From Phycisphaerales bacterium (lineage in GTDB: Bacteria; Planctomycetota; Phycisphaerae; Phycisphaerales; UBA1924), in the NCBI GenBank assembly GCA_050174775.1, contig JBFXJP010000005.1:146135-210134 (forward strand): 64,000 nucleotides of DNA. Reading direction: 5' to 3'. The notes beneath the pieces are model-generated. The model made no database searches. It was not told where the DNA came from and was given only the letters and a program-made list of their open reading frames with translations. This document shows positions 6,722 to 64,000 of this stretch, piece by piece. Position numbers and translations under genes: made by a program. Positions within the stretch are counted from its first letter, which is position 1. Each line of letters opens with the position of its first letter.

Positions 6722-7315
6722 GTGGCGCGCTGTGCCTGGTCCGAGTCATCCGAGCAGATGCGCATCTACCACGATGAGGAATGGGGGAGGCCGGTGCGCG
6801 ATGATCGCGTGCTGTTCGAGTTCCTGATCCTCGAGGGCGCGCAGGCGGGGCTGTCGTGGTCGACGATCCTGAAGAAGCGCGAGGCGTACCGCGAGGCGTT
6901 CGCCGAGTTCGATCCCGAGAAGGTGGCGCGCTTCACGGACGCTCGGCTCGAGCGCTTGCTACAGAACGAGGGGATCGTCAGGAATCGGCTCAAAGTCTTC
7001 GGCGCCCGGACGAACGCTCGCGCATTTCTGAGGGTGCAGGAGGAGTGTGGATCGTTCGCGGAGCTTGTGTGGGGGTTTGCGCCCACGGAAGTGAGGCGTG
7101 CGCCGCGGACTCTTCAGGACATCCCGTCGAAGACTGCGGAGTCGGACGCGATGTCGAAGGCGCTCAAGAAGTGCGGGTTCACGTTTGTGGGGTCGACGAT
7201 CTGCTACGCGTTCATGCAGGCCGTGGGGATCGTGAATGATCACGTGGAGGGGTGTGAGGCGGGGTCTGGGATCAGGGCGGGGAGTGGGGGGAGTATGAAG
7301 AAGCCGCGGCGCTGA
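6722..7315 (+). CDS. tag: DNA-3-methyladenine glycosylase I
   Basis: N-terminal RCAW...YHDEEWGRPVRDDRVLFEFLILEGAQAGLSWSTIL is typical of Tag. GTG start 4 nt after the nuoF stop. Confidence 0.9.
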   Translation: MARCAWSESSEQMRIYHDEEWGRPVRDDRVLFEFLILEGAQAGLSWSTILKKREAYREAFAEFDPEKVARFTDARLERLLQNEGIVRNRLKVFGARTNARAFLRVQEECGSFAELVWGFAPTEVRRAPRTLQDIPSKTAESDAMSKALKKCGFTFVGSTICYAFMQAVGIVNDHVEGCEAGSGIRAGSGGSMKKPRR

Positions 7316-7423
7316 TGAAAAAAGCGTCGTGGGCGCTTGCTTCGGCCTGGTTATGGGGGAGGAGTGTTATAGGTTGTTGGTGATGCGGGCCGCGCGGACG
7401 TGCGGCCTCCTGGGAGGAAACAC

Positions 7424-8113
7424 ATGTTCAGAGCATTTCGTGCTGTTGTGCCGGCGATGATCGGCGTTTGGCTGGGTGGCGCATCGAGCGCTTCGCTGGT
7501 GGTGTTCTCGAACGCTGGCGGCGAGTTTGCCTGGTCGGGCTCGCAGGCGATCCCGTTCGATCCGTTCTTTATTCGGGGCCAGGGGCTGGACGTGACACTC
7601 CCGCCGTCGCAGAGCGGCGGCGCGACTTCGCTCTCGACGCTGTACGTGTGGGGGAACCCCGTCACGTCGACGGAGCTGGTGGCGACTACGTTCGAGCGCG
7701 AGGGCGCGAACGTGCGCGTGGCGCAGGGTTCGACGGTGAACGTGATGGCCGGGGGCGGGCAGGCGGACTTCACGCTGGCGCGCGTCTTCGACGTCGGCGA
7801 GTCGGTCGGGGCGAGCGAGACGTGGGTCAGCTCAACGACCGCGGGGTTCTATTCGTTCACCACGGGGGACGTTCCTCTGCTCGGAACCTCGGCGTACGTG
7901 GGCGTGGAGCTGTCGATCGCGGGGCTGACGCACTACGGATGGATTCATCTGCTGTGGGACCCGACGGTCATCAGCGGCCGCAGCCAGTATCGCGCGACGA
8001 CGTGGGCGTACGAAACGGACGCGGGGATGCCGGCGCGCGTGATCCCGGCGCCGGGGGCGGCCGGGCTTCTCGCGTGTAGTTGCATCATGGCCCTGCGTCA
8101 GCGTCGGCGCTGA
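7424..8113 (+). CDS. Secreted protein with PEP-CTERM-like anchor
   Basis: ATG preceded by TGGGAGGAAACAC, identical to the leader of the gene at 280. Signal peptide present. C-terminus IPAPGAAGLLACSCIMALRQRRR. Confidence 0.7.
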   Translation: MFRAFRAVVPAMIGVWLGGASSASLVVFSNAGGEFAWSGSQAIPFDPFFIRGQGLDVTLPPSQSGGATSLSTLYVWGNPVTSTELVATTFEREGANVRVAQGSTVNVMAGGGQADFTLARVFDVGESVGASETWVSSTTAGFYSFTTGDVPLLGTSAYVGVELSIAGLTHYGWIHLLWDPTVISGRSQYRATTWAYETDAGMPARVIPAPGAAGLLACSCIMALRQRRR

Positions 8114-50276: not shown

Positions 50277-50588
50277 TCACGCCCCGAGTGTACCTCGCGC
50301 GCCCTCCCGCTCGCTCCCCCTCGATGCCTCCACCCGACCCGCCATCAACCCCCCGATCAGCCCCGACAACGACCGCTGCCCCGCCTCCACCGCCGCCACG
50401 GCCCGCGTGTTCTCCGTCACCACCGACATCAACGCCTCCAACTGCACCTTCTGCTCCATCACCCGCGCGTGCGCCTCGCCAAGCTGCGTCTCCCGCTGCA
50501 CCGCCCCGCGACGCTCCATCAGCCACATCCACGCGATCAGCCCCGCCGCCCCGAACTGCGCCAGCTCCGTCCACATCGCGCTCTCCAT
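50277..50588 (-). CDS. Small TM plus coiled-coil protein (i-spanin- or Mu gp25-like architecture)
   Basis: N-terminal TM LAQFGAAGLIAWMWLM, then a helical Q/E/R/A segment. 103 aa. Confidence 0.5.
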   Translation of the reverse strand: MESAMWTELAQFGAAGLIAWMWLMERRGAVQRETQLGEAHARVMEQKVQLEALMSVVTENTRAVAAVEAGQRSLSGLIGGLMAGRVEASRGSEREGARGTLGA

Positions 50589-50606
50589 CCCGATGCCTCC
50601 TCCCGC

Positions 50607-50978
50607 TTATGTCAGGCGCGCATAATCCGCCCGGTACGCCAGGCTGATCGCCCTCCCCCGGTCCACGCGCTCCTCCGGACGGAACGTCAGCAGCGTCATG
50701 CTCGACCACGTCCGCCCGTTGTTGTCCACCAGCGCGCCCGTCAGCTGCGATTCGCAGCGCGCCCGGATCGTCTCCACCTGCGTCCACAGGTCCGCCTCGT
50801 TCGCCCCGATCAGGCGCCCGGCCTGCTCGATCTGCACCTGCAGGTTCGCCGAGAACACCACGATCAGGTCCTGCAGCACGTCCACGCGCAGCGGCGGAAC
50901 CCACAGCTTCCCCACCTTCTTCAGCGCAAACCGGTGCGGCCCCGAATTGAACAACGACTGTCCCGCGATCGTGCTCAT
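50607..50978 (-). CDS. Phage-cassette hypothetical protein (123 aa)
   Basis: Normal composition. ATGA overlap with the upstream ORF at 50975-50978. Confidence 0.5.
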   Translation of the reverse strand: MSTIAGQSLFNSGPHRFALKKVGKLWVPPLRVDVLQDLIVVFSANLQVQIEQAGRLIGANEADLWTQVETIRARCESQLTGALVDNNGRTWSSMTLLTFRPEERVDRGRAISLAYRADYARLT

Positions 50979-51376
50979 CCCGCCACCTCCACCACAGGGT
51001 CCGCCGCGCCGTCCGACGAGATCGCCACCATCACGATCCGCTGCGTCGCGCCCCCCTTCGCGCTCAGCTCGTGCTCCACACTCTCCACCACCACGCTCGC
51101 CACGAACTCACGCGACCCAGCGTCCGTCCCCCCCGATCGCTTCCACCGCAGCTCGCCCGCCTCCCCCGTCTTCGCGGGCGCCGCTTCATCCGTCGTCAGC
51201 TGCCGTTTCAACCGGATCATCACGCGCTGCTCCGGCGCATCCGCGAACACCACGTGCGGCCCCTTGTCGCTCCGCTCCAGCGCCAATCCCCCCGACAGCC
51301 GATCCACCGTCAGCGCCTCCACGTTGTCCAGCGCCTTCCCCAGCAGCGTCACGCTCCCAGGCCGCACCACCAGCAT
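50975..51376 (-). CDS. Phage-cassette hypothetical protein (133 aa)
   Basis: Normal composition. 12-nt gap to the upstream ORF. Confidence 0.5.
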   Translation of the reverse strand: MLVVRPGSVTLLGKALDNVEALTVDRLSGGLALERSDKGPHVVFADAPEQRVMIRLKRQLTTDEAAPAKTGEAGELRWKRSGGTDAGSREFVASVVVESVEHELSAKGGATQRIVMVAISSDGAADPVVEVAG

Positions 51377-51388
51377 CCCGCACCTCCC

Positions 51389-52036
51389 TCACGCCCGCGT
51401 GAGACGCGTCACGCTCATCCGCCTCGTCGCATCCGCCACCCCGTCCCCGTTCAGATCGATCAACGCCGCCACGCGCTGCCGCTCCTCACGGAACCGCTCC
51501 CGATACGCCTCCGCCTTCGCCCACGTCGCCGACGTCTCGCCCACCATCGCGCTGGCGCTCGACAGGATCGCGTGCATCGCGCCCAGCGCCTCCACCCGCG
51601 CGAGCGACCCCGGATTCACGATCGAGGTCTCCCCCACCTCCCCAAGCTGCCCCACGCTCCCCGGCTCGATCCCCAGCATCCGCAGCACCTGCCCGTGCGC
51701 CACGCTCAACTGCGCCCGGAACGTCATCACCACCAGCGTCGCGCCCGACATCGTCCCCGGCGGGATCGCAACCCCGCCCGCCTCCTCCCGCACGCGCGAC
51801 ACCGTCAGCTGCGTCGCGCTCAACCGCGCCACCACCTCCATCACCGCGCCGTTCACCAGCGCCACGTGCCCCGCCGTCACCCCCGCCGTCACGAAGTCGC
51901 TCCCCGCGCTCGTCAGCGTCGTCCCCGACACGCTCACCCCGCTCGCCTCCACCACGCGCTGCGCCGACCACCCCACCTCCCGAAACAACCCCGGCTCCAG
52001 CACCAGCAGATCCCTGTCCGTTGCGAACCCCATCAC
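51389..52036 (-). CDS. Phage-cassette hypothetical protein (215 aa), possible head-completion/adaptor protein
   Basis: Sits directly downstream of the capsid gene. Begins ..FATDRDLLVLEPGLF, reminiscent of head-tail connector N-termini (weak). Confidence 0.5.
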   Translation of the reverse strand: MMGFATDRDLLVLEPGLFREVGWSAQRVVEASGVSVSGTTLTSAGSDFVTAGVTAGHVALVNGAVMEVVARLSATQLTVSRVREEAGGVAIPPGTMSGATLVVMTFRAQLSVAHGQVLRMLGIEPGSVGQLGEVGETSIVNPGSLARVEALGAMHAILSSASAMVGETSATWAKAEAYRERFREERQRVAALIDLNGDGVADATRRMSVTRLTRA

Positions 52037-52155
52037 ACCCCCCTTCCTCGATCACCCTTCCGTCAATCCCGCCGGCAGCGCCGCGGCGCCGCCGACGAGC
52101 CACGCGCGCAAAAGCCCACACCCCCGCGCGCGTCCCCCCTCCCCTTCCCGCAATC

Positions 52156-53328
52156 TCAACTCGTCGCCAACCCGCTCAGCACGCCGTGCGCGTTCTCGTT
52201 GCGGAACTCCAGCGTGTACTCACCGATCACCTGCCCCGCCTCGCTGTCCCCCGTCACCGCGTGCGGCTTGTACTGGAAGCTCCGTCCCGCCAGCGGCAGC
52301 ACGTCCACGCGCGACGAATCCAACAAGAGCGCCATGTCCGGCGGCATCCACCGGCTCAGGATCACCCGCGCCACACCGAAATCGCTCTCGTACACGCTCA
52401 CCAGCTCGCGGAACTTCGTGTCGCCGGGTGTGTACCCCACGTTCCCCGTCACGAACGAGTTGATCTTCCGTTTCTGGAAACCACCCACCACGATCGTGTC
52501 GATCTGCCCCGCCGAACTCTCCCACACGCGCCGCAGCGCCGCGTTCAGCACGTCCTCCGTCAGCCCGTTGTTCCCGCCCCCCGACCCCTGCGGCATGCCC
52601 CCCGCGCCCGGCTGCATCTTGTTCGTCACGATCGACGACAGCACCCCCCGCATCGTGCGCCGCACCGTCGACGAGCCCTGCTGCGTCGTGCTCGGCGCCA
52701 CCCCGTTCAGCACGCAGTTCTCCAGATCGCGCAGCAGCTCCCGCACGCGCTCCTGCTTCTGATAGTCCAGCTCGTCCTGCACCCCGATCGACTTCACCGC
52801 AAGCTGCGACCCCGACACCTCCACCGACGCGGTCAGGATCTGCGTGAAATTCGTCCGCCGGACGCGGCTCGTGAACCGCGCCGCAGGCCGCGCATCTCCC
52901 TCCAGCGCCGCGTTCCCGATGATCAGCAGCTTCATGTCGTCCGCCAGCGCCGTCGCCGTCGTGCCCCCGTACCCGCGCTGCACCGTCAACGCGTTCCCGA
53001 TCACGCCCGTCACCAGCATCACCTCGCCCGACGTCCCGGGCCGCACCTGATCGCCGACCTGAAACCGCGAGCCGTTGTCCACCACGAAGCTCGTCGCCGC
53101 CGTCGCGTTCGGCGTGAAGCTCGACTGATTCACCTGGTCCGTGTTGGGCAACAGCGCATCCTCCACCCACTCGTGCACCGTGCTCCGCGCCACCCGCGCC
53201 GGATCACCCAGGTGATCCAGCAGCGGCGTCTCGAACGGCGACACGATCCCGATGATGTCGCTCACGTCCTCCGCAATCTCCGGCAGATCCGCCCCCGCAC
53301 CGTACGTCGCCTTCCCCGTAAACGGCAT
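52156..53328 (-). CDS. Phage major capsid protein (SU10/DUF5309-like, from memory)
   Basis: 390 aa. N-terminal DIIGIVSPFETPLLDHLGD...STVHEWVEDAL resembles the signature of that capsid family. Position after the portal and scaffold genes supports the call. Confidence 0.75.
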   Translation of the reverse strand: MPFTGKATYGAGADLPEIAEDVSDIIGIVSPFETPLLDHLGDPARVARSTVHEWVEDALLPNTDQVNQSSFTPNATAATSFVVDNGSRFQVGDQVRPGTSGEVMLVTGVIGNALTVQRGYGGTTATALADDMKLLIIGNAALEGDARPAARFTSRVRRTNFTQILTASVEVSGSQLAVKSIGVQDELDYQKQERVRELLRDLENCVLNGVAPSTTQQGSSTVRRTMRGVLSSIVTNKMQPGAGGMPQGSGGGNNGLTEDVLNAALRRVWESSAGQIDTIVVGGFQKRKINSFVTGNVGYTPGDTKFRELVSVYESDFGVARVILSRWMPPDMALLLDSSRVDVLPLAGRSFQYKPHAVTGDSEAGQVIGEYTLEFRNENAHGVLSGLATS

Positions 53329-53405
53329 TCCCGCATCCTCCCTTGTGTTGCTCTCGTCTCACCCACTCCGCGCGCACGCCACCCGCGACACGCGCTCCAC
53401 CCGAC

Positions 53406-53963
53406 TCACCGACCGCGCTTCAGACGCAGGTACCGCAGCAACGCGCCGCGATCACCCGTCACCGCGGCCTCCTCAGCCGCATCCTCCAATGCGCTGCTCC
53501 AACGCTCCCCCACTCGACCGCTCATCACCGACGCCCCCGCGCCGCTCACATGCCCATGCCCGAACAACCAACCCTTCGTCCGCTTCAAGTCCTCGATCGC
53601 CACCGCCACATCCGGCGCATCCATCTCCTCCACCGCGGCCTCCGTCAGCAGCCGCGCCGCCGCGATGTCCACCGCCCCGGCCTCGGCCAGACAACACTCG
53701 ATCTGCCGCTTCCGCTCGCTCGCGTCCAACGCCTCCCGCGCCGCCTCCAGATCCTCCAACGCGCCCGCCAACTTCCCCTTCAACTCTTCCACAAGCGCCT
53801 CCGCCTCGAGCGCCCGCTTCCGCCAGCGCTGCTCCTCCGTCACCACCTCCACATCACCAGCCCCCCCCTCACCACCCGGCCCCGGCCCTCCACCGCCACC
53901 CTCCAGCGGCGGACCCCCGCCCCCACCCTCACCATCTCCCAAACCACCCGCACCAGGCATCAC
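53406..53963 (-). CDS. Phage scaffolding-like protein
   Basis: 185 aa. Gly-rich N-terminus, then an acidic coiled coil (EEQRWRKRALEAEALVEELKGKLAGALEDLEAAREAL). Lies between the portal and capsid genes. Confidence 0.6.
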   Translation of the reverse strand: MMPGAGGLGDGEGGGGGPPLEGGGGGPGPGGEGGAGDVEVVTEEQRWRKRALEAEALVEELKGKLAGALEDLEAAREALDASERKRQIECCLAEAGAVDIAAARLLTEAAVEEMDAPDVAVAIEDLKRTKGWLFGHGHVSGAGASVMSGRVGERWSSALEDAAEEAAVTGDRGALLRYLRLKRGR

Positions 53964-53986
53964 TCGCTCCTTTCATTTCACAGCGC

Positions 53987-55403
53987 TCAGACCACGCCCT
54001 CATCCCCCACCGCATACCCCAGCTCCGCCAGCGCCACGCTCGCCGGCACGCCCAGCTCGCGCTTCAGCCGCGCTTCCTCCAGCCGCTCGCGCTCGCTCCG
54101 GGGCAGCGCGTCCGGCCACACCACCCGCACCCTCCGCTCCGCCTCGCTCGTCCGGAACACCCCCATCCGGTCCAGCGCCGTCAGCGCCATCCGGCTCATC
54201 TCCGCGATCCCGCGCCCGTACGTCACGCGCTTCCGCGCCGTCTTCGTCACCAGCCCCTGCAGCGTCACCCGCAACGCGTTCTCGCTCGACAGATTCCCCA
54301 CCTTCGACAGCACCCCCGTCACGATCGGCGTCACGCTCGACGCCTTGTCCATCGCCTCACGCACCTCCCGGATGTGCGCCTCCTCCGACGGCGACGCCAT
54401 GTCCCCCCCGATCGCGTCCACGCTCGCCTGCTCGTTGTCCGTCCACCACACCATCCCCGCCCCGATCGGCGCCGCGTCCACCGGCTCCAGCCCCTTCGCG
54501 AGATACATCTGGAAACTCTGCATCGTCACCCGATGCGCCCGGTCCGACAGCCTCGTGTTCAGCTCGTCCTGCAGCGGGATCAGCGGCTCCACCTCCCCGA
54601 ACCCCGAATACTCGAGCGGCTGCGCGATGTTCTGCACGTGCGCGATCGGAACCTCCCCGAGCCCGTGCTCCTCCTCCTCGCGCAGCCTCCCGTCCACGTA
54701 CAACTGCCGCGCCCGCGCCGAGAACACCTCCACCACCTCTTCCCGACCGCGCTGCGCGCTCGACCTCCACTTCATCCCGAACCGCGCCAGCGCGGCACGC
54801 CCGCGATCCGCCTCCCGCACCACCTCCGTCGTCTCGCGCTCAAACCGCACCACGTACGCGTCCAGCGCCCGGTAGTCCCGCGCGCTCACCAGCGGGATCC
54901 CGCGCGTCGGCTCCACCACCTCGATCCTAACCCCCGCGCCCCGCCGTCCGCAGCAGCAGGTCCACGTGCCCGTACACCGCGCCCAACAGCGCCATGTCCT
55001 GCAGCAGCGCGATCCCGCCGGACCCCTCCCACACCCCGTCCAGCACACGCGCGATCTCCTCGCGCCGACCCGCGTCCTCCACCTGCGCCGCCACCGTCAC
55101 CGGCCGCCCGAACATGAAGTCCACCATCGCATGCACCCGCCACGCGATGTCATTCTCGACCACGCGCTCCTTCTGATCATCCCGATCATCCTGCCCGCGC
55201 TTCCGACGCTTGAACCGGCTGGGCAGCCCCTCCTCCTGCGCCAAACGCCCGCGCCCCGAACCATTCTCCACCCGCGCATTGCGGTAATACGCCCACAACC
55301 GACGCATCCCCGGCACGCGCCGCCTCTCGTGCTCCTCGATCAGCACGCCCAGCAGCGCCGCGTCCAGACCCACCTCCGCAAACGGCCCCAGCGAATAAGC
55401 CAC
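53987..55403 (-). pseudogene. Phage portal protein interrupted by a +1 frameshift
   Basis: N-terminal 158-aa ORF (54927-55403) and C-terminal ORF (53987-55048) are in different frames. They join at a G5 run (C5 at 54931-35 on the plus strand; minus-strand GGGGGTTAG spans 54927-54935). Joined length is about 470 aa. Confidence 0.6.
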
Positions 55404-55897: not shown

Positions 55898-56212
55898 TCA
55901 CGCCCGCAGATCGATCTCGCGCGTCAACGCGCTCACCGTGGCGTCCACCACCTCATGGCTCTCATAGAACCCCGAGGCGATCCGCTCCCGGGCCCGCGCA
56001 ATCACATCCTCACGCACGTCCGGCAGCTCCTTCAACTTCGCCAGAAACAACGCTCGATCCGACAACTCCACCCGGTCCTCATCACCCGCCCGACCCGCGC
56101 TCACCGAGGGCTGACTCGCGCCGATGCTCCGGTCCGCGCGCCCACCACTCCGAACCGATTCCACCCGGGAAAAACCAACCTCGTGCACGCCATTGATCGT
56201 AAAGTCTGACAT
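55898..56212 (-). CDS. flgM: Anti-sigma-28 factor FlgM-like protein
   Basis: 104 aa. C-terminal VELSDRALFLAKLKELPDVREDVIARARERIASGFYESHEVVD fits the FlgM pattern V.LS..A....LP.VR.dkV..lk.aI.sG.Y. Confidence 0.7.
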   Translation of the reverse strand: MSDFTINGVHEVGFSRVESVRSGGRADRSIGASQPSVSAGRAGDEDRVELSDRALFLAKLKELPDVREDVIARARERIASGFYESHEVVDATVSALTREIDLRA

Positions 56213-56526
56213 GAGCGTCCCGTCTGTTCCCTGCCGGCCCGCCCGAGACTCCGCTCGAACCGCGCCGTCTCGCGCCGCGCCACACCGGCCGCGACACGAA
56301 ATCCCCCGAATCCCGCCGCCGTGATCGGGCCGCTCCCGCGAACCCGCCTCAGGACACTCGCCCAAGGCCCACCTCACGACGACACCCACACTATCGTCCC
56401 CCAGACCGAGAACCCTGCAATCCTTCCCACCACGATTCCACATCACCTAAACCTAAGTCAAGCAACCACTTACATCGGATAACCGCCACCGGACTTCCAC
56501 CCGATTTTCTGCCAAGAGTCACTCCC

Positions 56527-57327
56527 ATGACCCCCAGATCTTGCCCAAATACACACCGAACAAATCTCCTCCTCTTTGCCGCCCTCTTTCTCCTCCTCCT
56601 CCCCCTCGCGCCCACCCACGCCCAGTCCCACAAGAAGGACTCCTCCTCAAACTCCTCCACCTCCACCCCGGAAGGCTGGACCATCGTCCTCGCTACCTAC
56701 GCCGGCCCCGATCACGCCGGGCTCGCGGCGGGCGCGGCCGAGCAGATCCGCACGCTCACTCCTCTGAAGGACGTCCAAACCCAGAACCGAGGCAAGGGCT
56801 CCGTGGTCGTGCTGGGCTCATACCCCTCCCCGGCGGACCCTCAGGCTCAAAAAGACCTCCTGGCCGTCCGCAACACACTCCTTGAAGAGCGCCCCCTCTT
56901 CCTGGCCGCGTTCCTCGCGCCACCGCGCACGCCTTCGGAAGCGGATCCGGGCTCCGCGGCTCCCTTCCCCCTCTCCACCGCCCGAGCCGAGTTCTCCCCC
57001 TACGCCCGCTACACACTTCAGATCGCCATCTACGAATCGCCCAACCTCGACGAGGCCAGAAAGGCCGCGGAAAAAGCCGCGCTCCAACTCCGACGCGACG
57101 GCGAGCCCGCCTTCTACTACCACGGCCCCACCGCCTCCCTGGTCACCCTCGGCGCCTTCACCGACGCCGACGCCGGCATCTCCAAGCCCATCGAGTCACC
57201 GCTCCTTGCCCAGCTTCGCAAACGACACCCCCACAATCTCTACAACGGCAACCAGCAGCTCCTCCAGAAGACCCCGGGCGCCAAGGACAAGACCCCTCAG
57301 CCCTCGTTCCTTGTCGAGATCCCCTGA
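56527..57327 (+). CDS. Secreted protein with two SPOR-like domains
   Basis: Signal peptide LLLFAALFLLLLPLAPTHA. GWTIVLATYAGPDHAG...SVVVLGSY and YTLQIAIYESPNLDEARKAAEK...LVTLGAF resemble SPOR repeats. Confidence 0.55.
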   Translation: MTPRSCPNTHRTNLLLFAALFLLLLPLAPTHAQSHKKDSSSNSSTSTPEGWTIVLATYAGPDHAGLAAGAAEQIRTLTPLKDVQTQNRGKGSVVVLGSYPSPADPQAQKDLLAVRNTLLEERPLFLAAFLAPPRTPSEADPGSAAPFPLSTARAEFSPYARYTLQIAIYESPNLDEARKAAEKAALQLRRDGEPAFYYHGPTASLVTLGAFTDADAGISKPIESPLLAQLRKRHPHNLYNGNQQLLQKTPGAKDKTPQPSFLVEIP

Positions 57328-57789
57328 CTCGGCGCCACCGTCAGGTTTTCCCCCATCGTCCGGAAACGCACTTTCCGGCCCGACACGCGCGATTTCTCTT
57401 GCAGAACCTTCGCGCTCAGGTATGCTCAAAAAGTCTTGCCACGCGCCTTTGCACAGGGACGTGGCAGTAGCGAGTAGAGAGAGCGCTGCGCACAGCGCGA
57501 CCGGGCTACGTCTTGCGTGCATCCCTCCGGTGATGCACGAAGCGTCCCGCGCATCGCGCGTCCTGCGCACCCCCCCTACACGCGGCGCTGCCACGCTCAA
57601 CGGCATTCGTTCCGACGCGCCGCACAACGCGCCGGAACTCCAACGTGGCAGAGCCGCCCGGCCCGTTAACTCGGTTCGGGAGGCTTCAACGTCAGGCGAC
57701 CTGGGGCGTTGAGGCCCACCACACGGGCCAGGTGAGAGGGACGCGTTGTGAACCCCAGCGCACCGCACACTGCCGCCTGACGAAATTCA

Positions 57790-57829
57790 CGCCGCCATGG
57801 GACACCCCCCGTGGCGGCGTTTTTCTTTC
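57790..57829 (+). terminator. Strong rho-independent terminator
   Basis: 11-bp stem CGCCGCCATGG/CCGTGGCGGCG (57790-57800 and 57809-57819, one G-U pair). 8-nt loop, then TTTTTCTTT. Confidence 0.7.
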
Positions 57830-57943
57830 GCGCACGGCGCGAGGCTCGAGAGAGCCGCGAAATGCAGCGGCGTGGACGGCCGCACGTGCGCCGGCCGTAT
57901 GATGCACCGCGTCTTCGGGTTGTATTCTCGAGGGGTATCCGCA

Positions 57944-58720
57944 ATGACCGCTGCGCGAATCTTCGCGATCTGCATCGCCCTCCTCGGCGTCATCCTCGCC
58001 GGGCGTGCGCTGCTCCCCACGAGCCGTGCGACACACCACCCGCAAACGCCCGCGCCGACACCTTCCGGCGACCCCGAGGCTGCGGACGAATCACGACATC
58101 CCCCTTCGCTTCCCGAGTGGGATGCGCTCTCGTTCTCCTCGGCTCGCGCGGACGACGCCATCGCCTCGCTCTCCGCCGCGCTCGACGAGGATGCGCGTTG
58201 GGTGCAAGTCGATCTCCCGAACGACGCGCGCAGCGATCTCCGCGAGCGATTTCTCCGGCGAGTCTCGTACGTGCTTCGCGCGAGCGAGGACGATCGTCTC
58301 GCCGCCGCGTTGGCCGAGCGCGCGACGCGCACCGATGCTCCGGATGGTCTCTCCCCCGAGTCGATCGAACGCTGCGGCCGATGGCCGCAGGTCTGGGCCG
58401 ATGCGCCCATCGACGCTTCCAACATCCGCGTACGCATCCTCGACGTCTCGTCCGGCGCCGCGATGCGTGCGGCCTCCACGCCCGCGGTGACCAGCTCTCC
58501 GCTCAGCGCGGCGTACGGCGAGCCCGCGCAACCGAAGCGCCTCTACGAAATCATCGTTCCCATCAGGCCGCGCACCGCTCCCGATGAATCACGTCGCATC
58601 CCCGCGTTCCTCGGCGTTGCGTACGAGCGCACGGCGCAGAACACGTGGCGTCCGCATCGCATCTCCGTCTACACGCATGAGCACCCCGGCGGACGCCCGC
58701 TGATCGCACCCCCGATGTGA
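57944..58720 (+). CDS. Membrane-anchored protein, function unknown
   Basis: Start MTAARIFAICIALLGVILAG (TM), downstream of the terminator. Lies 6 nt before the pseudopilin gene. Confidence 0.5.
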   Translation: MTAARIFAICIALLGVILAGRALLPTSRATHHPQTPAPTPSGDPEAADESRHPPSLPEWDALSFSSARADDAIASLSAALDEDARWVQVDLPNDARSDLRERFLRRVSYVLRASEDDRLAAALAERATRTDAPDGLSPESIERCGRWPQVWADAPIDASNIRVRILDVSSGAAMRAASTPAVTSSPLSAAYGEPAQPKRLYEIIVPIRPRTAPDESRRIPAFLGVAYERTAQNTWRPHRISVYTHEHPGGRPLIAPPM

Positions 58721-58726
58721 CGCATC

Positions 58727-59485
58727 ATGAAACGCGCACGCCACAACGTGTCTCGCGCTTTCACCATCAGCGAGCTTCTCGTCTCGATCGGCGTCATCGG
58801 CGTGCTCATCGCCATCACGCTCCCCGCGCTGCGTTCGAGCCGTGCCGTCACGGGCGCCACGGCCTCGCTTGCCAACCTGCGCTCGCTCGGGCAATCCCTC
58901 CAACTCTCCACGCAACGTAACAACGAGCGTTTCCCGTTCCCCCCTCGACGTGGAGAGAGTTGGGGCCCGCTGTATTGGGAGCCTCCGCACCCGAACGCGG
59001 CCCAGCACTTCTACGGAGACGTCTGGTACTACGGTCGCTTCTTCTGGCCCGCGCTGCTGCACGACGTGGCGCCCTGGCCCGAGCACTACGCATCATGGCT
59101 CTCGCCCAACTACCAGGCTCCCGACGGAGACAACCCGCTCTGGGAGCGTGTGCCGATCGTGTCGTACTTCTATTCGACGGCGTTCTACGCGGCGCCGAGA
59201 GTGTGGGACGTGTCGCTCCGTGCGAACGTCACCGCGCACGACATTGCGCAGCAGCCCGTTTCGGTCGTCTCCTTCCCGAGCGCGAAGGTGATCGCGTATG
59301 ACCGTGATCGCTCGTACATCACGAGGATGACGCCCGACGCGCAGCGCCCCGTGCTCTTTGTCGACGGCAGCGCATCGCTGCGGCTGGATCGTGACGCCGC
59401 GGAGCCCGTGCAGAACCCGTTGAGCGCTGATTCTCCCGCGCGCTATCACGACACCCCGCTCGGCGCCGCGGGGCGCGACTTCTGA
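58727..59485 (+). CDS. Prepilin-type N-terminal cleavage/methylation protein (DUF1559, H-X9-DG family)
   Basis: N-terminus RAFTISELLVSIGVIGVLIAITLPAL. C-terminal VLFVDGSASL (DG motif). Confidence 0.8.
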   Translation: MKRARHNVSRAFTISELLVSIGVIGVLIAITLPALRSSRAVTGATASLANLRSLGQSLQLSTQRNNERFPFPPRRGESWGPLYWEPPHPNAAQHFYGDVWYYGRFFWPALLHDVAPWPEHYASWLSPNYQAPDGDNPLWERVPIVSYFYSTAFYAAPRVWDVSLRANVTAHDIAQQPVSVVSFPSAKVIAYDRDRSYITRMTPDAQRPVLFVDGSASLRLDRDAAEPVQNPLSADSPARYHDTPLGAAGRDF

Positions 59486-60666: not shown

Positions 60667-60785
60667 CGCCCGCTCCTGTGCGCCGTTTCCTGGTGATACC
60701 AAACAAACACCTTGCAAACAAGACTGTATCCGATAAAACTCCGAACATCGAGTTGAGCGATCAATAGACGAGCGGCTTATCCAGA
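60667..60785. promoter_or_regulatory. Divergent promoter/operator region of the repressor switch
   Basis: Lower-GC spacer. Contains TTGCAA-16 nt-TAAAAC (60712-60739, plus strand), CAAACAA direct repeats at 60700-60706 and 60715-60721, and a GATAC/GTATC inverted pair at 60695-60699 and 60726-60730. Confidence 0.4.
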
Positions 60786-61274
60786 ATGAGACGGGAGGGC
60801 GCCATGGTCGGAGGACAGGCGATCGGGATGCGGGCGGGTCGGAGCGCGGTGCGGGAGCTGGATCGGATCGATCCGGATCGGGTGGCGGACCTTCGTCGGA
60901 GGCATGGTCGGGAGGAGACGGAGCGGGTGTTGGCGTTGGCGGAGCACGTGGGTGCGGAGGAGCGGGCGCTGCTGCGCGCGGTGTTCGAGGGAGGGGTGTC
61001 GGTGGGGGAGTTGGCGCGGGTGAGGGGGTGTCCGGTGCGGACGTTGCGGCGCGAGGTGCGCGGTCTGGTGAGGAGGGTGACGGACCCGCGGTTCGTGTTC
61101 GTGCTGTCGAGGCGTGAGGGGTGGGGGGCTGGTCGGAGGAAGGTGGCGAGCGCGTGCGTGTTGCAGGGGTTGAGTCTGCGGGAGGCCGCGCGGGAGGCGG
61201 GGCTGACGCTGCACACGGTGCGTCGGCACATGGGGGCGATCGAGGCGTTGTTTGATGCGGAGAGCGCGGCGTGA
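60786..61274 (+). CDS. Regulator with two sigma-70 region-4/LuxR-like HTH units
   Basis: VSVGELARVRGCPVRTLRREVRGLVRRV and LSLREAAREAGLTLHTVRRHMGAIEAL. Start codon uncertain. Confidence 0.55.
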   Translation: MRREGAMVGGQAIGMRAGRSAVRELDRIDPDRVADLRRRHGREETERVLALAEHVGAEERALLRAVFEGGVSVGELARVRGCPVRTLRREVRGLVRRVTDPRFVFVLSRREGWGAGRRKVASACVLQGLSLREAAREAGLTLHTVRRHMGAIEALFDAESAA

Positions 61275-62593
61275 GTGAGCGGGTGTTGCGAGCGTGCGCG
61301 ATGTTCGGGCTGCCGCCTGAGGAGGCGCGCGAGGCGGCGAGGGAAGCGGTGCGCGCGGGGAGGGAGATCTCGGCGCGAGGGGGGACGATCACGCTGCTGA
61401 CGGGGGCGAGCGGCTCGGGGAAGACGAGCGCGCTGCGGAGCGCGGTGGAGCAGTGGCGCGCGGAGGGGCGGATGGTGATCGAGGCGCGGCCGGCGTCGAG
61501 GCGCGCGTGGCGGCGCGCGTGCGTCGAACTGGTGGGGGAAGGGGAGGGAGAGGAGGGGGTGGCGCGCGCGATGCGGAGGCTGTCGCAGGTGGGGCTGGGC
61601 GAGGCGCGGTGCTTCGTGCGGAGCGCGCGGGAGTTGTCGGAGGGGCAGCGGGAACGGCTATGGCTTGGGATGGCGCTGGAGCGCGCGGCGCGGACGGCGG
61701 GGAGCGTGATCGTGGTGGATGAGTTTCTCGCGCGGTTGGATCGGGTGACCGCGCGGGTGACGGCGCGGTGCTTCGCGCGGGCGGTGCGTCAGGAGGGGGT
61801 GAGCGCGGTGGTGGCCACGGCGCACGATGACCTGGAGGAGGCGCTGGGGGCGGACGAGGTGGTGCGGTTCGGGTTGGATGGAGGGGTGCGTGTGACGCGG
61901 GGGGCGGGGGAGAGCGCGGCGCTGGAGGTGGAGTACGGGGAGGCGGAGTGGGAGGAGTGCGCCGGGTTGTTGCGGTTTCACTATCGCGGCGCGCGGCCGG
62001 CGATGGTGGCGCGGGTGATGGCGGCGCGCGTGGAGGGAGAGGTGGTGGGGGCGTTGATCGTGGCGATGCCGACGTTGAACGGGGTGTGGAGGCGGCTGGC
62101 GTGGGGTGATCGGTATTCGAGCGGGGATCGGCGGGAGTGCGCGCGGCGGCTGAACGCGGAGGTGCGGCGGATCTCGCGGGTGGTGGTTGATCCGCGGTGG
62201 CGGGGCGTGGGGATCGCGAAGGGGCTGGTGCGCGCGTATCTGGATGCGCCGCTGACGGCGCGGACGGAGGCGGTGGCGGCGATGGGGGCGGTGTGCCCGT
62301 TCTTCGAGCGCGCGGGGATGCGTGCGCATCGGGCGCCGGCGGGGCATCGGGATGCGCGGCTGCTGGACGTGTTTGCGCATCTCGGGGTGCGTGAGTGGGA
62401 GACGTGTGACGGCGCGCGTGTGCTGCGGGCGGCGCGGGAGCGCGGGCTGGAGGCGTGGCTGGAGTGGGAGTTGGAGCGGTGGGTGGGCGACGGGAGGGGG
62501 AGGGAGACGTGTCGAGGCTTGGGCGTGGAGGGGCTGGCGCGGGAGGCGTGTCGGCGGGTGTCGGCGGAGCAGGTGGCGTACACGGATGGATGA
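61271..62593 (+). CDS. ABC-type ATPase fused to GNAT acetyltransferase
   Basis: Walker A GASGSGKTS, signature-like LSEGQRERL, Walker B VIVVDEF and ATAHD, then GNAT motif A RVVVDPRWRGVGIAKGLV. The GTG start overlaps the upstream stop (GTGA). Confidence 0.7.
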   Translation: MSERVLRACAMFGLPPEEAREAAREAVRAGREISARGGTITLLTGASGSGKTSALRSAVEQWRAEGRMVIEARPASRRAWRRACVELVGEGEGEEGVARAMRRLSQVGLGEARCFVRSARELSEGQRERLWLGMALERAARTAGSVIVVDEFLARLDRVTARVTARCFARAVRQEGVSAVVATAHDDLEEALGADEVVRFGLDGGVRVTRGAGESAALEVEYGEAEWEECAGLLRFHYRGARPAMVARVMAARVEGEVVGALIVAMPTLNGVWRRLAWGDRYSSGDRRECARRLNAEVRRISRVVVDPRWRGVGIAKGLVRAYLDAPLTARTEAVAAMGAVCPFFERAGMRAHRAPAGHRDARLLDVFAHLGVREWETCDGARVLRAARERGLEAWLEWELERWVGDGRGRETCRGLGVEGLAREACRRVSAEQVAYTDG

Positions 62594-62794
62594 ATGGAAA
62601 GGAGGCGCGAGGTGCGGCGGGGAACACAGGGCGGGGAATTGTTGTCGTCGTTGACGGTGTTTGTGACGGCGGCGGAGCGGCGGGAGGCGTTGGAGGTGAT
62701 GCGTCGTTTCGATCGGGAGCGTGGGAGGGCGTTCATGGGGATGGCGCGTGCGGCGGCGACGGTGCGTGCGGCGCGGAAGGGGGGGAGGGCGTGA
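62594..62794 (+). CDS. Small basic protein (66 aa)
   Basis: ATG directly abuts the upstream stop. Its own stop overlaps the next ATG (TGATG). No domain recognised. Confidence 0.4.
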   Translation: MERRREVRRGTQGGELLSSLTVFVTAAERREALEVMRRFDRERGRAFMGMARAAATVRAARKGGRA

Positions 62795-63243
62795 TGGGCG
62801 CGAAGCGTGGCGTGGTGGTGGATGCGGACGTGCGGAGCGGTCGGGTGTTGCGGGACGTGTATTCGCTGGTGCGCGAGGCGCCGCAGATCGCGGAGCGTCA
62901 CGGGATGACGTTGCGGGAGCTGGCGTCGTGGGCGAGTTCGGAGGAGGAGCGGAGGACGGTGGAGGGGTTGTGTCGATTTGAGGATGCGCGTGCGGAGTTG
63001 TTGTTGCGGCGTGCGCGGGTGAGCGCGGCGCGGCGGTTGTTGCGGCTTTCGCTGGAGGCGTCTTCGGAGGAGACGAGGCGGAAGGCGTGCGTGGACCTGT
63101 TGCGGATCGGGTCGTCGTCGGGGTTGCGGCGTGTGCGTGAGGAGGAGGAGGAGGGGGAGAGCGGGATGGAGGTGTTGCAGGACGGGCCGGAGGCCGAGGT
63201 GATTCGGGAGACGTTGGAGCGTCGGGGCGCGCAGAGCGCGTGA
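62794..63243 (+). CDS. Candidate small terminase subunit (149 aa)
   Basis: Call rests on position immediately upstream of the TerL-like gene and on a helical N-terminus with an HTH-like segment (IAERHGMTLRELASW). An acidic tail is present. Assignment is positional only. Confidence 0.4.
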   Translation: MGAKRGVVVDADVRSGRVLRDVYSLVREAPQIAERHGMTLRELASWASSEEERRTVEGLCRFEDARAELLLRRARVSAARRLLRLSLEASSEETRRKACVDLLRIGSSSGLRRVREEEEEGESGMEVLQDGPEAEVIRETLERRGAQSA

Positions 63244-63258
63244 GGGAGGGGGTGGGTG

Positions 63259-64000
63259 ATGGCGGGAGGGAGGGTGGTGTCGAGGCGCGCGTTGTTGGGC
63301 GTGCGGCCGAGGACGGAGAACCAGTTGTGGGAGTGGCTGCGTCTGGTGCTGGACGTGGAGGCGTCGCGGCGCGCGTTGGTGGAGGGGAGTGATGCGCCGT
63401 TTTCGTACGTGGCGCACGCGTTCTTCGAGGAGCGTGGCGAGCGGGACGTGGTGGTGTGGGCGAATCGGGGCGGGGGGAAGACGTTCTATGGCGCGGTGGC
63501 GACGGTGTTGGACCTGGTGTTCAAGCCGGGGATCGAGGTGCGCGTGCTTGCGGGGAGCGTGGAGCAGGGGCAGCGGATGCACGGGCACGTGCGGAGGTTG
63601 TTTGAGCGGGAGCGGCTGCGCGGGTTGGTGGACGGGAAGCCGACGGGGAGGAGTTTGCGGCTGACGAACGGGAGTGTGGTGGAGGTGAGCGCGGCTTCGG
63701 AGTCGTCGGTGCGGGGGGCGAGGCCGGTGAAGATGCGGTGTGACGAGGTGGAGTTGTTTGATCCGGAGATCTGGGCGGCGGCGCAGCTGGCGCCGAGGAG
63801 CAGGAGGTGTGGTGGTGTGTGGGCGAAGGCGGGTGTTGAGGCGTTGAGCACGATGCATCGGCCGTGGGGGTTGATGCACGAGTTGACGGGGGACCTGGAG
63901 CGGAAGCAGTTTCGGTGGGGGGTGGTGGATGTGTTGTCGAGGTGCGCGTCAGCGCGGGAGTGTTCGTCGTGCGCGTTGTGGGAGGAGTGTGGGGGGAGAG
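63259..64000 (+). CDS. Large terminase subunit, N-terminal ATPase part (partial, runs off the window)
   Basis: I translated this frame by hand; it has no stop through 64000. Walker A VVWANRGGGKTF, Walker B KMRCDEVELF and a following STMH coupling-like motif. Not in the ORF track because it lacks a stop. Confidence 0.75.
   Translation, partial: MAGGRVVSRRALLGVRPRTENQLWEWLRLVLDVEASRRALVEGSDAPFSYVAHAFFEERGERDVVVWANRGGGKTFYGAVATVLDLVFKPGIEVRVLAGSVEQGQRMHGHVRRLFERERLRGLVDGKPTGRSLRLTNGSVVEVSAASESSVRGARPVKMRCDEVELFDPEIWAAAQLAPRSRRCGGVWAKAGVEALSTMHRPWGLMHELTGDLERKQFRWGVVDVLSRCASARECSSCALWEECGGR

Follow-up and report, generated by a model that had tools for sequence, protein, structure and literature searches.

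A phage ATPase of the ATP-binding cassette (ABC) type coupled to a GNAT acyltransferase has been predicted to acylate a DNA base, in a passage of Iyer et al. 2021 (PMC7824862) that gives Tenacibaculum phage pT24 as the example and cites Iyer et al. 2013 for the prediction. Related chemistry is known from Mom, a GNAT that moves glycine from Gly-tRNA to adenine N6 in double-stranded DNA (PMC13219725). Some phage thymine dioxygenases have been shown by experiment to need a ParB homologue as activator, and 19.2% of the contigs mined with phage 5mYOX profiles also carry terminases (PMC13229309). Furthermore, ASCH/YqfB enzymes hydrolyse N4-acylcytosines (PMC6972931), and ASCH proteins have been reported as erasers of N4-acetylcytidine (ac4C) on tRNA (bioRxiv 10.64898/2026.02.27.708502). 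Here, we describe a member of this enzyme class in a 64,000-nucleotide stretch of a Phycisphaerales bacterium (GenBank assembly GCA_050174775.1, contig JBFXJP010000005.1, positions 146,135 to 210,134), which in its full length is called the window below. One open reading frame (ORF) in this window encodes an ABC-type ATPase followed by a GNAT domain (ABC::GNAT) and stands in an operon with terminase genes. Judged by its sequence, ABC::GNAT belongs to a widespread phage gene family, within which it forms a diverged clade specific to the Phycisphaerales. Our preferred reading, to which we give a probability of about 0.45, is that of an ATP-gated GNAT N-acyltransferase that uses acyl-coenzyme A (acyl-CoA) and acts on DNA about to be packaged.

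To assign folds to the protein, we used profile searches together with AlphaFold2 (AF2) models of the whole chain and of its C-terminal half. An initial annotation of this DNA, made from the letters without database searches, had described a single 440-aa ORF with four ABC motifs and one GNAT motif, and all five lie where it placed them (Table 1). The ABC nucleotide-binding fold occupies residues ~35-214 and the GNAT fold residues ~215-440. The full-length model, built with 63 homologues, reached a predicted local distance difference test (pLDDT) score of 93.7 and a predicted template modelling (TM) score (pTM) of 0.89, and the model of residues 215-440 alone reached a pLDDT of 94.7. In Foldseek searches of the PDB, the N-terminal half resembled the ABC nucleotide-binding domains (NBDs) MJ1267, LptB, HrtA, MalK, and PhnK (E ~1e-6, target TM-scores [TMt] of 0.5-0.6). 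The C-terminal half gave 65 matches at E<=1e-3, and all of the 50 best listed are acetyltransferases. Pfam scores for the protein were above the cut-off for ABC_tran (27.9 bits, cut-off 25), AAA_22 (28.4, cut-off 27), and AAA_30 (27.7, cut-off 27), and slightly under it for Acetyltransf_10 (22.6 versus 23.6) and Acetyltransf_1 (20.0 versus 20.7). Both folds are thus borne out by the profile and structure searches of each half, and we regard the predicted fusion of an ABC-type ATPase fold to a GNAT fold as confirmed, the support from the models being decisive.

The residues expected of both activities are well preserved. In an alignment of 63 homologues, from which all conservation figures for the protein are taken, G45, S47, G48, G50, K51, S123, G125, D150, D157, and R311 are invariant, and E151, L156, G314, and A316 are conserved in at least 90% of the sequences. 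The GNAT CoA motif in its canonical form, R-x-x-G-x-A, is thus retained through R311, G314, and A316. Within the GNAT core, H237-Y238 and the β4 arginines R299 and R303 are also invariant, with E333 as a further core residue. An insertion of ~26 aa between β3 and β4 (residues ~268-296) is specific to the Phycisphaerales clade and coincides with a gap in the viral profile. On the ATPase side, the H-loop His is present in the window protein (ATAHD), and some homologues carry Arg instead. The spacing from Walker A to the signature is short (~75 aa), and no clear Q-loop Gln was identified in the alignment. As the initial annotation had stated, the protein has no transmembrane segment (maximum Kyte-Doolittle 19-residue mean of 1.39), and the cassette has no permease gene. 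It had also proposed translational coupling on both sides, which we find again: the GTG start overlaps the TGA of the upstream helix-turn-helix (HTH) ORF (GTGA, 61271-61274), and the TGA of ABC::GNAT (62591-62593) abuts the ATG of a 66-aa ORF at 62594. The GTG start is supported by the conservation of residues 2-13 in the homologues.

The wider relationships of the protein place it among phage genes. One of the phage proteins in the family aligns with pT24 over both halves (4e-25), which identifies the family as the one for which DNA acylation was predicted. When the Phycisphaerales profile was aligned with a profile of IMG/VR phage proteins using hhalign, the two matched with a probability of 99.95% (E 3.7e-38) over 301 columns that span both halves. 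The alignment also shows that, besides the β3-β4 insertion, the Phycisphaerales proteins are distinguished by an extended helical segment ahead of the last strand. The phage family itself is evident from tblastn against GenBank phages and from PHROGs 11143, 293, and 886, and PHROG 11143 matches ABC::GNAT at 4e-19. By BLASTP, the similarity extends across both halves to gp2 of Gordonia phage BiggityBass (5e-20), annotated as an 'ATP binding cassette-like protein', and to gp29 of Burkholderia phage phiE255 (7e-14). The best structural match in BFVD is a full-length 'GNAT' protein of Leptospira phage LE4 (TMt 0.66). At least 164 ABC::GNAT relatives are present in IMG/VR, and the family ranges over phages of Actinobacteria, Firmicutes, Bacteroidota, Spirochaetes, and Proteobacteria, SSU5-type phage-plasmids, and jumbo phages. 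In SSU5 the two halves are separate genes (SSU5_127 and SSU5_129); its linear record ends with this split module and starts with a DNA-binding protein and the large terminase subunit (TerL). Members of the family are routinely mis-annotated as 'ABC transporter', and elsewhere they carry labels as inconsistent as 'iron siderophore transporter' and 'hemin importer'. No experimental characterisation of the family was found in the literature, and acyl modification of a DNA base by its members is a prediction. The initial annotation knew of no characterised ATPase::GNAT fusion, which holds for experiments but passes over the DNA-base acylation already predicted in that passage of Iyer et al. 2021 (PMC7824862).

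To learn which genes accompany the phage members, the neighbours of 80 IMG/VR loci were clustered and representatives annotated. A ParB_N gene (~186 aa) lies directly upstream in 58 of these loci, and its product matches the ParB-DNA-methyltransferase PHROG 498. TerL genes of several types lie downstream in at least 32, as they also do in SSU5, Gordonia phages, and prophage 315.4, and the small terminase subunit (TerS) is among the recurring partners. A PurN/Fmt-type formyltransferase is found in 11 loci as well as in phiE255 (gp30) and Gordonia phages (gene 3), while ASCH-domain proteins are found in seven loci and in prophage 315.4. For instance, this Streptococcus pyogenes prophage carries, in this order, ParB_N, the ABC half, a small ORF, ASCH, a TerS-like ORF, TerL, and a portal gene. 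DNA methylases stand alongside the module in Oenococcus and streptococcal prophages. Taken together, the phage context of ParB_N, formyltransferase, ASCH, and DNA methylases points to DNA chemistry. Two annotations in these neighbourhoods deserve mention. Gene 3 of BiggityBass (L004, 1823-2473) is annotated as 'tRNA-methyltransferase' and scores as the formyltransferase phrog_9240 (7e-38). In Porphyromonas gingivalis phages (~33.3-34.5 kb), an ORF that overlaps or adjoins the ABC::GNAT homologue is annotated as 'acr candidate'.

We next consider the Phycisphaerales members. A search of about 5.8 billion protein clusters yielded at least 240 homologues of 420-510 aa, and those with a named source are nearly all from Phycisphaerales or Phycisphaerae. 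Several bear JGI names such as 'ABC-type ... ATPase / GNAT superfamily N-acetyltransferase'. In a scan of one genome per GTDB species, for which the profile was made from 10 sequences because the 63-sequence alignment was too diverse, relatives were found in 281 species-representative genomes, complete chromosomes included. A deep search with a profile against 1.84 billion representatives yielded 1870 clusters at E<=1e-30, and the best 150 of these show one architecture throughout with no informative domain fusion.

Gene order was compared in 80 retrieved loci, nearly all from Phycisphaerales. TerL lies downstream of ABC::GNAT in 69 of the 69 loci that reach far enough downstream, a gene for a protein with two HTH motifs (2xHTH) lies upstream in 69 of 72, and a divergent S24/HTH repressor is present in 63 of 69. 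On both the adjacency to terminase and the repressor, the initial annotation was correct. The order in this chromosomal cassette is fixed, with the S24 repressor divergent from 2xHTH, ABC::GNAT, the 66-aa ORF, and TerL, and the cassette has housekeeping flanks. Even genomes that are distant from one another share flanking genes (UbiA in 27 loci, MarR in 22, Fer4 in 26, and DUF6677 in 46). The divergence of ABC::GNAT correlates with TerL divergence (rho 0.67) and with the divergence of the DUF6677 gene in the flank (rho 0.71). Compared with the two closest relatives, ABC::GNAT has a ratio of nonsynonymous to synonymous substitution rates (dN/dS) of 0.30-0.39; the corresponding ranges are 0.12-0.19 (repressor) and 0.11-0.15 (a capsid gene located outside the cassette). 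The cassette is under purifying selection and appears to be vertically inherited in Phycisphaerales chromosomes. The initial annotation had named homologues that are ordinary chromosomal genes unconnected with mobile elements as evidence against its reading, and half of this applies: the close homologues are encoded on chromosomes and appear to be inherited vertically, yet a phage-derived TerL accompanies them in every case, and the more remote ones come from phages.

The capsid gene belongs to a head module that is separate from the cassette. In the window, the module comprises a portal, a scaffold-like gene, a major capsid gene of the SU10/DUF5309 type, and four small ORFs (4-5 small ORFs across occurrences). 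The module is also found in locus L168 (7564-14294) as well as in L007, L008, L024, L027, and L046, and its gene order in L168, which is from a distant genome, is that of the window. The portal of the window is split, with residues 1-166 in frame -1 and residues 202-515 in frame -2 (53987-55403), and is intact in L007, L008, and L168; the split is either a frameshift from sequencing or assembly or a sign that the portal of this genome is a pseudogene. Identity among the listed Phycisphaerales capsid proteins is 68-77%, at a near-constant length of 388-392 aa, and the capsid protein is far more conserved than the genes of the TerL cassette. Only 4-5 of the 80 loci have portal and capsid genes within 10 kb of the cassette. 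In one genome, a single contig (CAYMNQ010000003.1) carries the intact head module at ~393-400 kb and the TerL cassette at ~275 kb, ~120 kb apart, with host genes flanking each. No tail or lysis genes were recognised with the head module or in the window neighbourhood. A full prophage in the window was rejected: host genes (DinB, TrpD, MarR, UbiA, and UbiX) lie at 41.9-48.5 kb, host genes lie beyond TerL in relatives, and no integrase or tail genes were seen in the window. Taken together, synteny, co-divergence, dN/dS, and the separate head module indicate a vertically inherited, selected, split phage-derived system and not a prophage.

With this background, the Phycisphaerales protein can be compared with its phage relatives. 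It shares with the pT24-type family, whose members include phiE255 gp29, Gordonia phage gene 2, the Leptospira phage LE3 and LE4 proteins, and the three PHROGs named above, both domains and their order, the motifs Walker A, LSxGQ, DEF..D, HY, and R-x-x-G-x-G/A, and the position directly upstream of TerS/TerL. It differs in its length of 440-500 aa rather than ~370 aa, in its 2xHTH partner in place of ParB_N, and in being encoded in a repressor-controlled chromosomal cassette instead of a phage genome. The possibility that the 2xHTH partner is a ParB_N homologue was rejected (hhalign probability 0.4%).

Under the preferred reading of an acyltransferase for DNA about to be packaged, DNA damage would trigger self-cleavage of the divergent S24 repressor and thereby de-repress the operon, in which the expression of ABC::GNAT is tied to that of TerL. 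The co-translated 2xHTH protein would substitute for the phage ParB_N in targeting or activating the enzyme at DNA. Upon ATP binding, two ABC domains of a homodimer would close, Walker A of one against the signature of the other, around or onto the nucleic acid and present an exocyclic base amine. The GNAT domain would then move an acyl group from acyl-CoA to this amine, and ATP hydrolysis would reset the enzyme. Based on the analogy to TmcA and the ASCH neighbours, the leading candidate for the product would be a mark of the N4-acylcytosine type. Lastly, the adjacent TerL would package the modified DNA into SU10-type capsids supplied by the separate head module. In this scheme we infer the DNA substrate, the acyl donor, the role of the partner, the SOS control, and the production of particles. 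The initial annotation had listed, among several options, an ATP-gated acetylase acting on packaging or virion components, and this comes close to the acylase linked to packaging that we favour.

Several observations weigh against this reading. The genes for ParB_N, formyltransferase, ASCH, and methylase that accompany the phage members are missing from the Phycisphaerales cassette, whose HTH partner is unrelated to ParB_N. The modelled ABC module is like a transporter NBD and not like SMC/Rad50, and its binding to DNA is putative. The solved GNAT structures nearest to the C-terminal half in Foldseek are polyamine, arylalkylamine, and protein N-terminal acetyltransferases, and the GNAT half is no nearer to Mom than to generic GNATs. 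Moreover, a chromosomal element that delivers DNA to kin would have no obvious need for an anti-restriction modification.

Comparison with characterised enzymes leads to a similar mixture of likeness and difference. TmcA couples NTP hydrolysis to the N4-acetylation of cytidine, and it ranks second among the structural matches for the C-terminal half and eighth for the whole model. As in ABC::GNAT, a P-loop NTPase precedes the GNAT domain in TmcA/NAT10, followed in TmcA by a helical nucleic-acid-binding region, and the structural alignment of the C-terminal half spans 306 columns. The ATPase of TmcA, however, is a RecD-like helicase module with DUF1726 and not an ABC NBD, and the global TM-score is only 0.16-0.40. 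Neither DUF1726, a RecD-like helicase, GNAT_acetyltr_2, nor a tRNA-binding domain is among the 25 best of 27 Pfam matches at E<=1. The resemblance is most likely one of convergent architecture. Mom of phage Mu, encoded by a late gene, has a GNAT fold as well, again with a helical insertion towards its end, and the BFVD matches include Mom-like proteins. In a manual alignment, which serves as a lead only, an H-Y pair on helix 1 and the β4 Arg that is essential in one protein and invariant in the other correspond. In contrast to ABC::GNAT, Mom uses Gly-tRNA as donor, has RNSES in place of the R-x-x-G-x-A CoA loop, and lacks an ATPase; a sequence relation between the two is not significant (hhalign probability 0.2%). 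The ParB-dependent thymine dioxygenases (5mYOX with ParB) offer the parallel of a small phage ParB_N protein as obligatory activator of a DNA-modifying enzyme (PMC13229309), although their catalyst is an iron/2-oxoglutarate (Fe/2OG) dioxygenase and the window version has no ParB.

The acyl acceptor could also be a protein. Acetylation of TerS, TerL, portal, scaffold, or a host DNA-associated protein would then license or time packaging, the host targets being, for example, a nucleoid protein or RNA polymerase, as with Rac of phiKMV-like phages. Phage GNATs that modify host proteins are known (PMC7824862), and many of the nearest GNAT structures are enzymes for protein N termini or ribosomal proteins (Naa60, Ard1, RimI, and NatC). 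The retained canonical acetyl-CoA motif and the persistence of the gene in a minimal chromosomal packaging cassette without other DNA-modification genes would also fit. We nonetheless consider a protein substrate unlikely, as no candidate protein co-varies with the gene and a phage context of this kind (ParB_N, DNA methylase, ASCH, and formyltransferase) typically goes with enzymes that modify nucleic acids. In favour of RNA, ASCH neighbours have been reported as tRNA ac4C erasers (bioRxiv 10.64898/2026.02.27.708502), the formyltransferase neighbours are of the PurN/Fmt type, and Mom uses a charged tRNA. With ATP, a TmcA/NAT10-like enzyme would bring a cytidine of tRNA or rRNA, or else an aminoacyl-tRNA, to its GNAT site, and translation would thereby be reprogrammed at a late stage of induction. 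The layout of ATPase, GNAT, and helical segment does parallel TmcA, a top structural match. Yet the ATPase is an ABC NBD and not a RecD-like helicase module, TmcA Pfam domains were not detected, and the ParB_N and DNA-methylase partners and the position before terminase point to DNA. An RNA acyltransferase is less likely still than one for proteins.

A defence function had been the first suggestion of the initial annotation, in the form of a single-chain sensor-effector for exclusion or abortive infection, with an anti-defence enzyme as another option. Soluble ABC ATPases are common in defence systems, as in GajA, PtuA, AriA, and LmuB, and GNAT toxins exist, as in TacT, AtaT, and ItaT, so that each half has a counterpart there. 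PADLOC gave weak matches to MADS mad3 (9e-9, 100 aa) and mad8 (1e-5), and an anti-defence function would accord with the 'acr candidate' label in the Porphyromonas phages. The comparison does not extend further: PADLOC found no match to the Gabija, Septu, PARIS, or Lamassu ATPases, and Pfam gave no TacT-like profile match. The three toxins are small stand-alone GNATs with an upstream ribbon-helix-helix (RHH)/DUF1778 antitoxin, whereas ABC::GNAT is a 440-aa fusion, and neither DUF1778 nor another antitoxin was matched among its neighbours by Pfam or PADLOC. Those neighbours are the HTH protein, the 66-aa ORF, a TerS-like ORF, and TerL, with no nuclease or antitoxin partner, and the position in the packaging operon is fixed in all 69 chromosomal loci and kept in diverse phages, unlike that of variable defence islands. 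We therefore regard the sensor-effector as not sustained and give defence and anti-defence together a very low probability; an anti-restriction role is subsumed under DNA modification. Most improbable of all is the acetylation of polyamines or other small amines, by which the charge of the counter-ions would be adjusted as DNA condenses in the capsid. The top PDB matches of the GNAT half are indeed N-acetyltransferases for agmatine, polyamines, and spermine (7ciu, 5k9n, and 5yag), but their TM-scores of 0.37-0.45 are no better than those of other GNATs. Such a role would leave the ATPase and the DNA-binding partner unexplained and has no contextual support.

Beyond the enzyme, the head module suggests a domesticated, possibly gene transfer agent (GTA)-like particle system. 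The arrangement recalls the GTAs of Rhodobacter (RcGTA), Caulobacter, and Bartonella, which also consist of chromosomally inherited, phage-derived head and packaging genes at several loci, under purifying selection and with host-type regulation. It differs in its Planctomycetota lineage and its SU10/DUF5309 capsid. To our knowledge, no known GTA contains an ABC::GNAT gene. In the searchable literature, we found no relevant description of a GTA or DUF5309 system in Phycisphaerae or Planctomycetes, so a GTA-like system here would be new for the phylum. Only tentatively, and with doubt prevailing, do we extend this to an order-wide domesticated GTA-like phage system in the Phycisphaerales, made of an S24/SOS-type packaging cassette (2xHTH as activator, ABC::GNAT, the 66-aa protein, TerS in some cases, and TerL) and a separate, extremely conserved SU10 module, in which ABC::GNAT would be obligatory and would acylate DNA or a packaging factor ahead of encapsidation.

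Since the fusion belongs to a computationally predicted phage family, it does not open a new category. The novelty lies in the large Phycisphaerales clade with its different partner, its clade-specific insertions, and its strict retention beside TerL in a repressor-controlled cassette, along with the highly conserved SU10-type head module that accompanies it at a separate locus. The strict retention next to TerL on the chromosome suggests that ABC::GNAT matters for packaging itself, beyond restriction evasion. If the order-wide system is real, this would be the first phage DNA-modification-type enzyme kept as the core of a domesticated particle system. For the phage family as a whole, the neighbourhood data turn the 2013 prediction into a concrete hypothesis, the ATP-dependent N-acylation of a DNA base, possibly to N4-acylcytosine. 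DNA modification of this kind would be chemically new and of use in biotechnology and in the study of anti-restriction.

Table 1. Features of the ABC::GNAT cassette and the head module in the window.
Feature	Position	Strand	Remarks
ABC-type ATPase::GNAT acyltransferase, 440 aa	61271..62593	+	GTG start
Walker A GASGSGKTS, residues 45-53	61403..61429	+	G45, S47, G48, G50, K51 invariant
ABC signature LSEGQ, residues 122-126	61634..61648	+	S123, G125 invariant
Walker B VIVVDEF (146-152) with catalytic Glu, and D-loop L156-D157	61706..61741	+	
H-loop region ATAHD, residues 182-186	61814..61828	+	Consensus ATAHxDL
GNAT core, residues ~215-358	61913..62344	+	From C-half model, Foldseek, and invariant columns
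GNAT motif A / CoA pyrophosphate loop RWRGVGIAKG, residues 309-318	62195..62224	+	R311-x-x-G314-x-A316
Helical segment (~359-430), then terminal strand (435-439)	62345..62590	+	DSSP, both AF2 models
Divergent HTH_3 + Peptidase_S24 (LexA/CI-type) repressor, 279 aa	59827..60666	-	Start codon 60666 from sequence
Divergent regulatory region, relatively AT-rich	60667..60785	.	Blocks CTGTGCGC (60676-60683) and ACCTTGCAAA (60709-60718)
Partner protein, 162 aa, two sigma-70-region-4-like HTH motifs	60786..61274	+	Pfam Sigma70_r4_2 7e-7, HTH_20 4e-6
Conserved 66-aa ORF	62594..62794	+	Stop overlaps next ATG by one base (TGATG)
HTH-containing ORF, 149 aa, candidate small terminase subunit	62794..63243	+	TerS label by position only
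Large terminase subunit, N-terminal ATPase part	63244..64000	+	Runs off window
Head module	50277..55403	-	~5 kb from cassette, opposite strand; functional link inferred
SPP1-type portal, frameshifted	54927-55403 + 53987-55048	-	Pfam SPP1_portal 9e-18
Scaffold-like gene	53406-53972	-	Weak Pfam Phage_scaffold match
SU10/DUF5309 major capsid gene	52156-53328	-	Pfam SU10_MCP 1.6e-84; PHROG major head protein 7.5e-79

The remaining genes of the cassette were assigned as follows. The repressor matches Pfam Peptidase_S24 (2.5e-17) and HTH_3 (5e-8) as well as PHROG 4 'transcriptional repressor' (2e-26). Its sequence contains VAAG with an Ala-Gly site, the serine of GDSM, and the lysine of FKR, and it is probably of the autocleavable type. 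Upon comparison of 62 homologous intergenic regions, CTGTGCGC was found in 30 and ACCTTGCAAA in 29. No sigma-70 consensus promoter was found in the divergent regulatory region of the window. An operator-like palindrome, TGTTCA-N8-TGAACA, is present in the intergenic regions of ~15 loci and not in the window. An operator shared by the cassette and head-module promoters was not supported: this palindrome is absent upstream of the portal in L168, and TGTGCGC-N4-9-GGTGA occurs in only 5 of 80 loci, within shuffle expectation. In L168, TTGTGCGCGCGCCGGTGAC occurs twice upstream of the portal, 113 nt apart (at 7294 and 7407, in regions 7290-7313 and 7404-7427), and both copies resemble the TGTGCGC...GGTGA element in the cassette promoter of the same genome (L025, 9191).

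Downstream of ABC::GNAT, the 66-aa ORF is homologous to a 67-aa ORF of the related locus L003 (40% identity, E 3e-6), and one or the other version follows ABC::GNAT directly in ~38 of the 80 loci. It has no match to a Pfam, PHROG, or PADLOC family; its motif LTxYVT..R is possibly ribbon-helix-helix-like. The 149-aa HTH ORF likewise matches no family in these three collections and is homologous to a 152-aa ORF of locus L001 (41% identity, E 5e-9). An HTH ORF of ~150 aa precedes TerL in only ~14 loci, and the gap between ABC::GNAT and TerL correspondingly clusters at ~200-300 nt or at ~460-970 nt. The translated TerL of the window contains Walker A GGGKT and Walker B CDEVE and matches a PHROG terminase large subunit at 5e-6, and its full-length orthologue in L001 matches Terminase_6C and several PHROG TerL families.

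In 46 of the 80 loci, TerL faces a convergent pair formed by a DUF6677 gene and a small ORF of 83-91 aa (for instance, 14788-15554 in L001 and 13081-13871 in L003, both on the minus strand). The divergence of this pair co-varies with that of TerL (rho 0.81). The two genes could be a host flank or a part of the element, for example, with a membrane or lysis function. In the window, the space between head module and cassette holds a gene for an FlgM-like anti-sigma-28 protein (55898-56446, minus strand) and three plus-strand genes (56527-59485), the last of which encodes a prepilin-type N_methyl protein. Both the FlgM-like and the N_methyl protein are ordinary host products. In L003, three genes of about the sizes of those in the window (370, 308, and 249 aa) lie downstream of TerL, and the 249-aa product matches N_methyl weakly. 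If these genes, which are alike in size, are the same, the neighbourhood may have undergone a local rearrangement.

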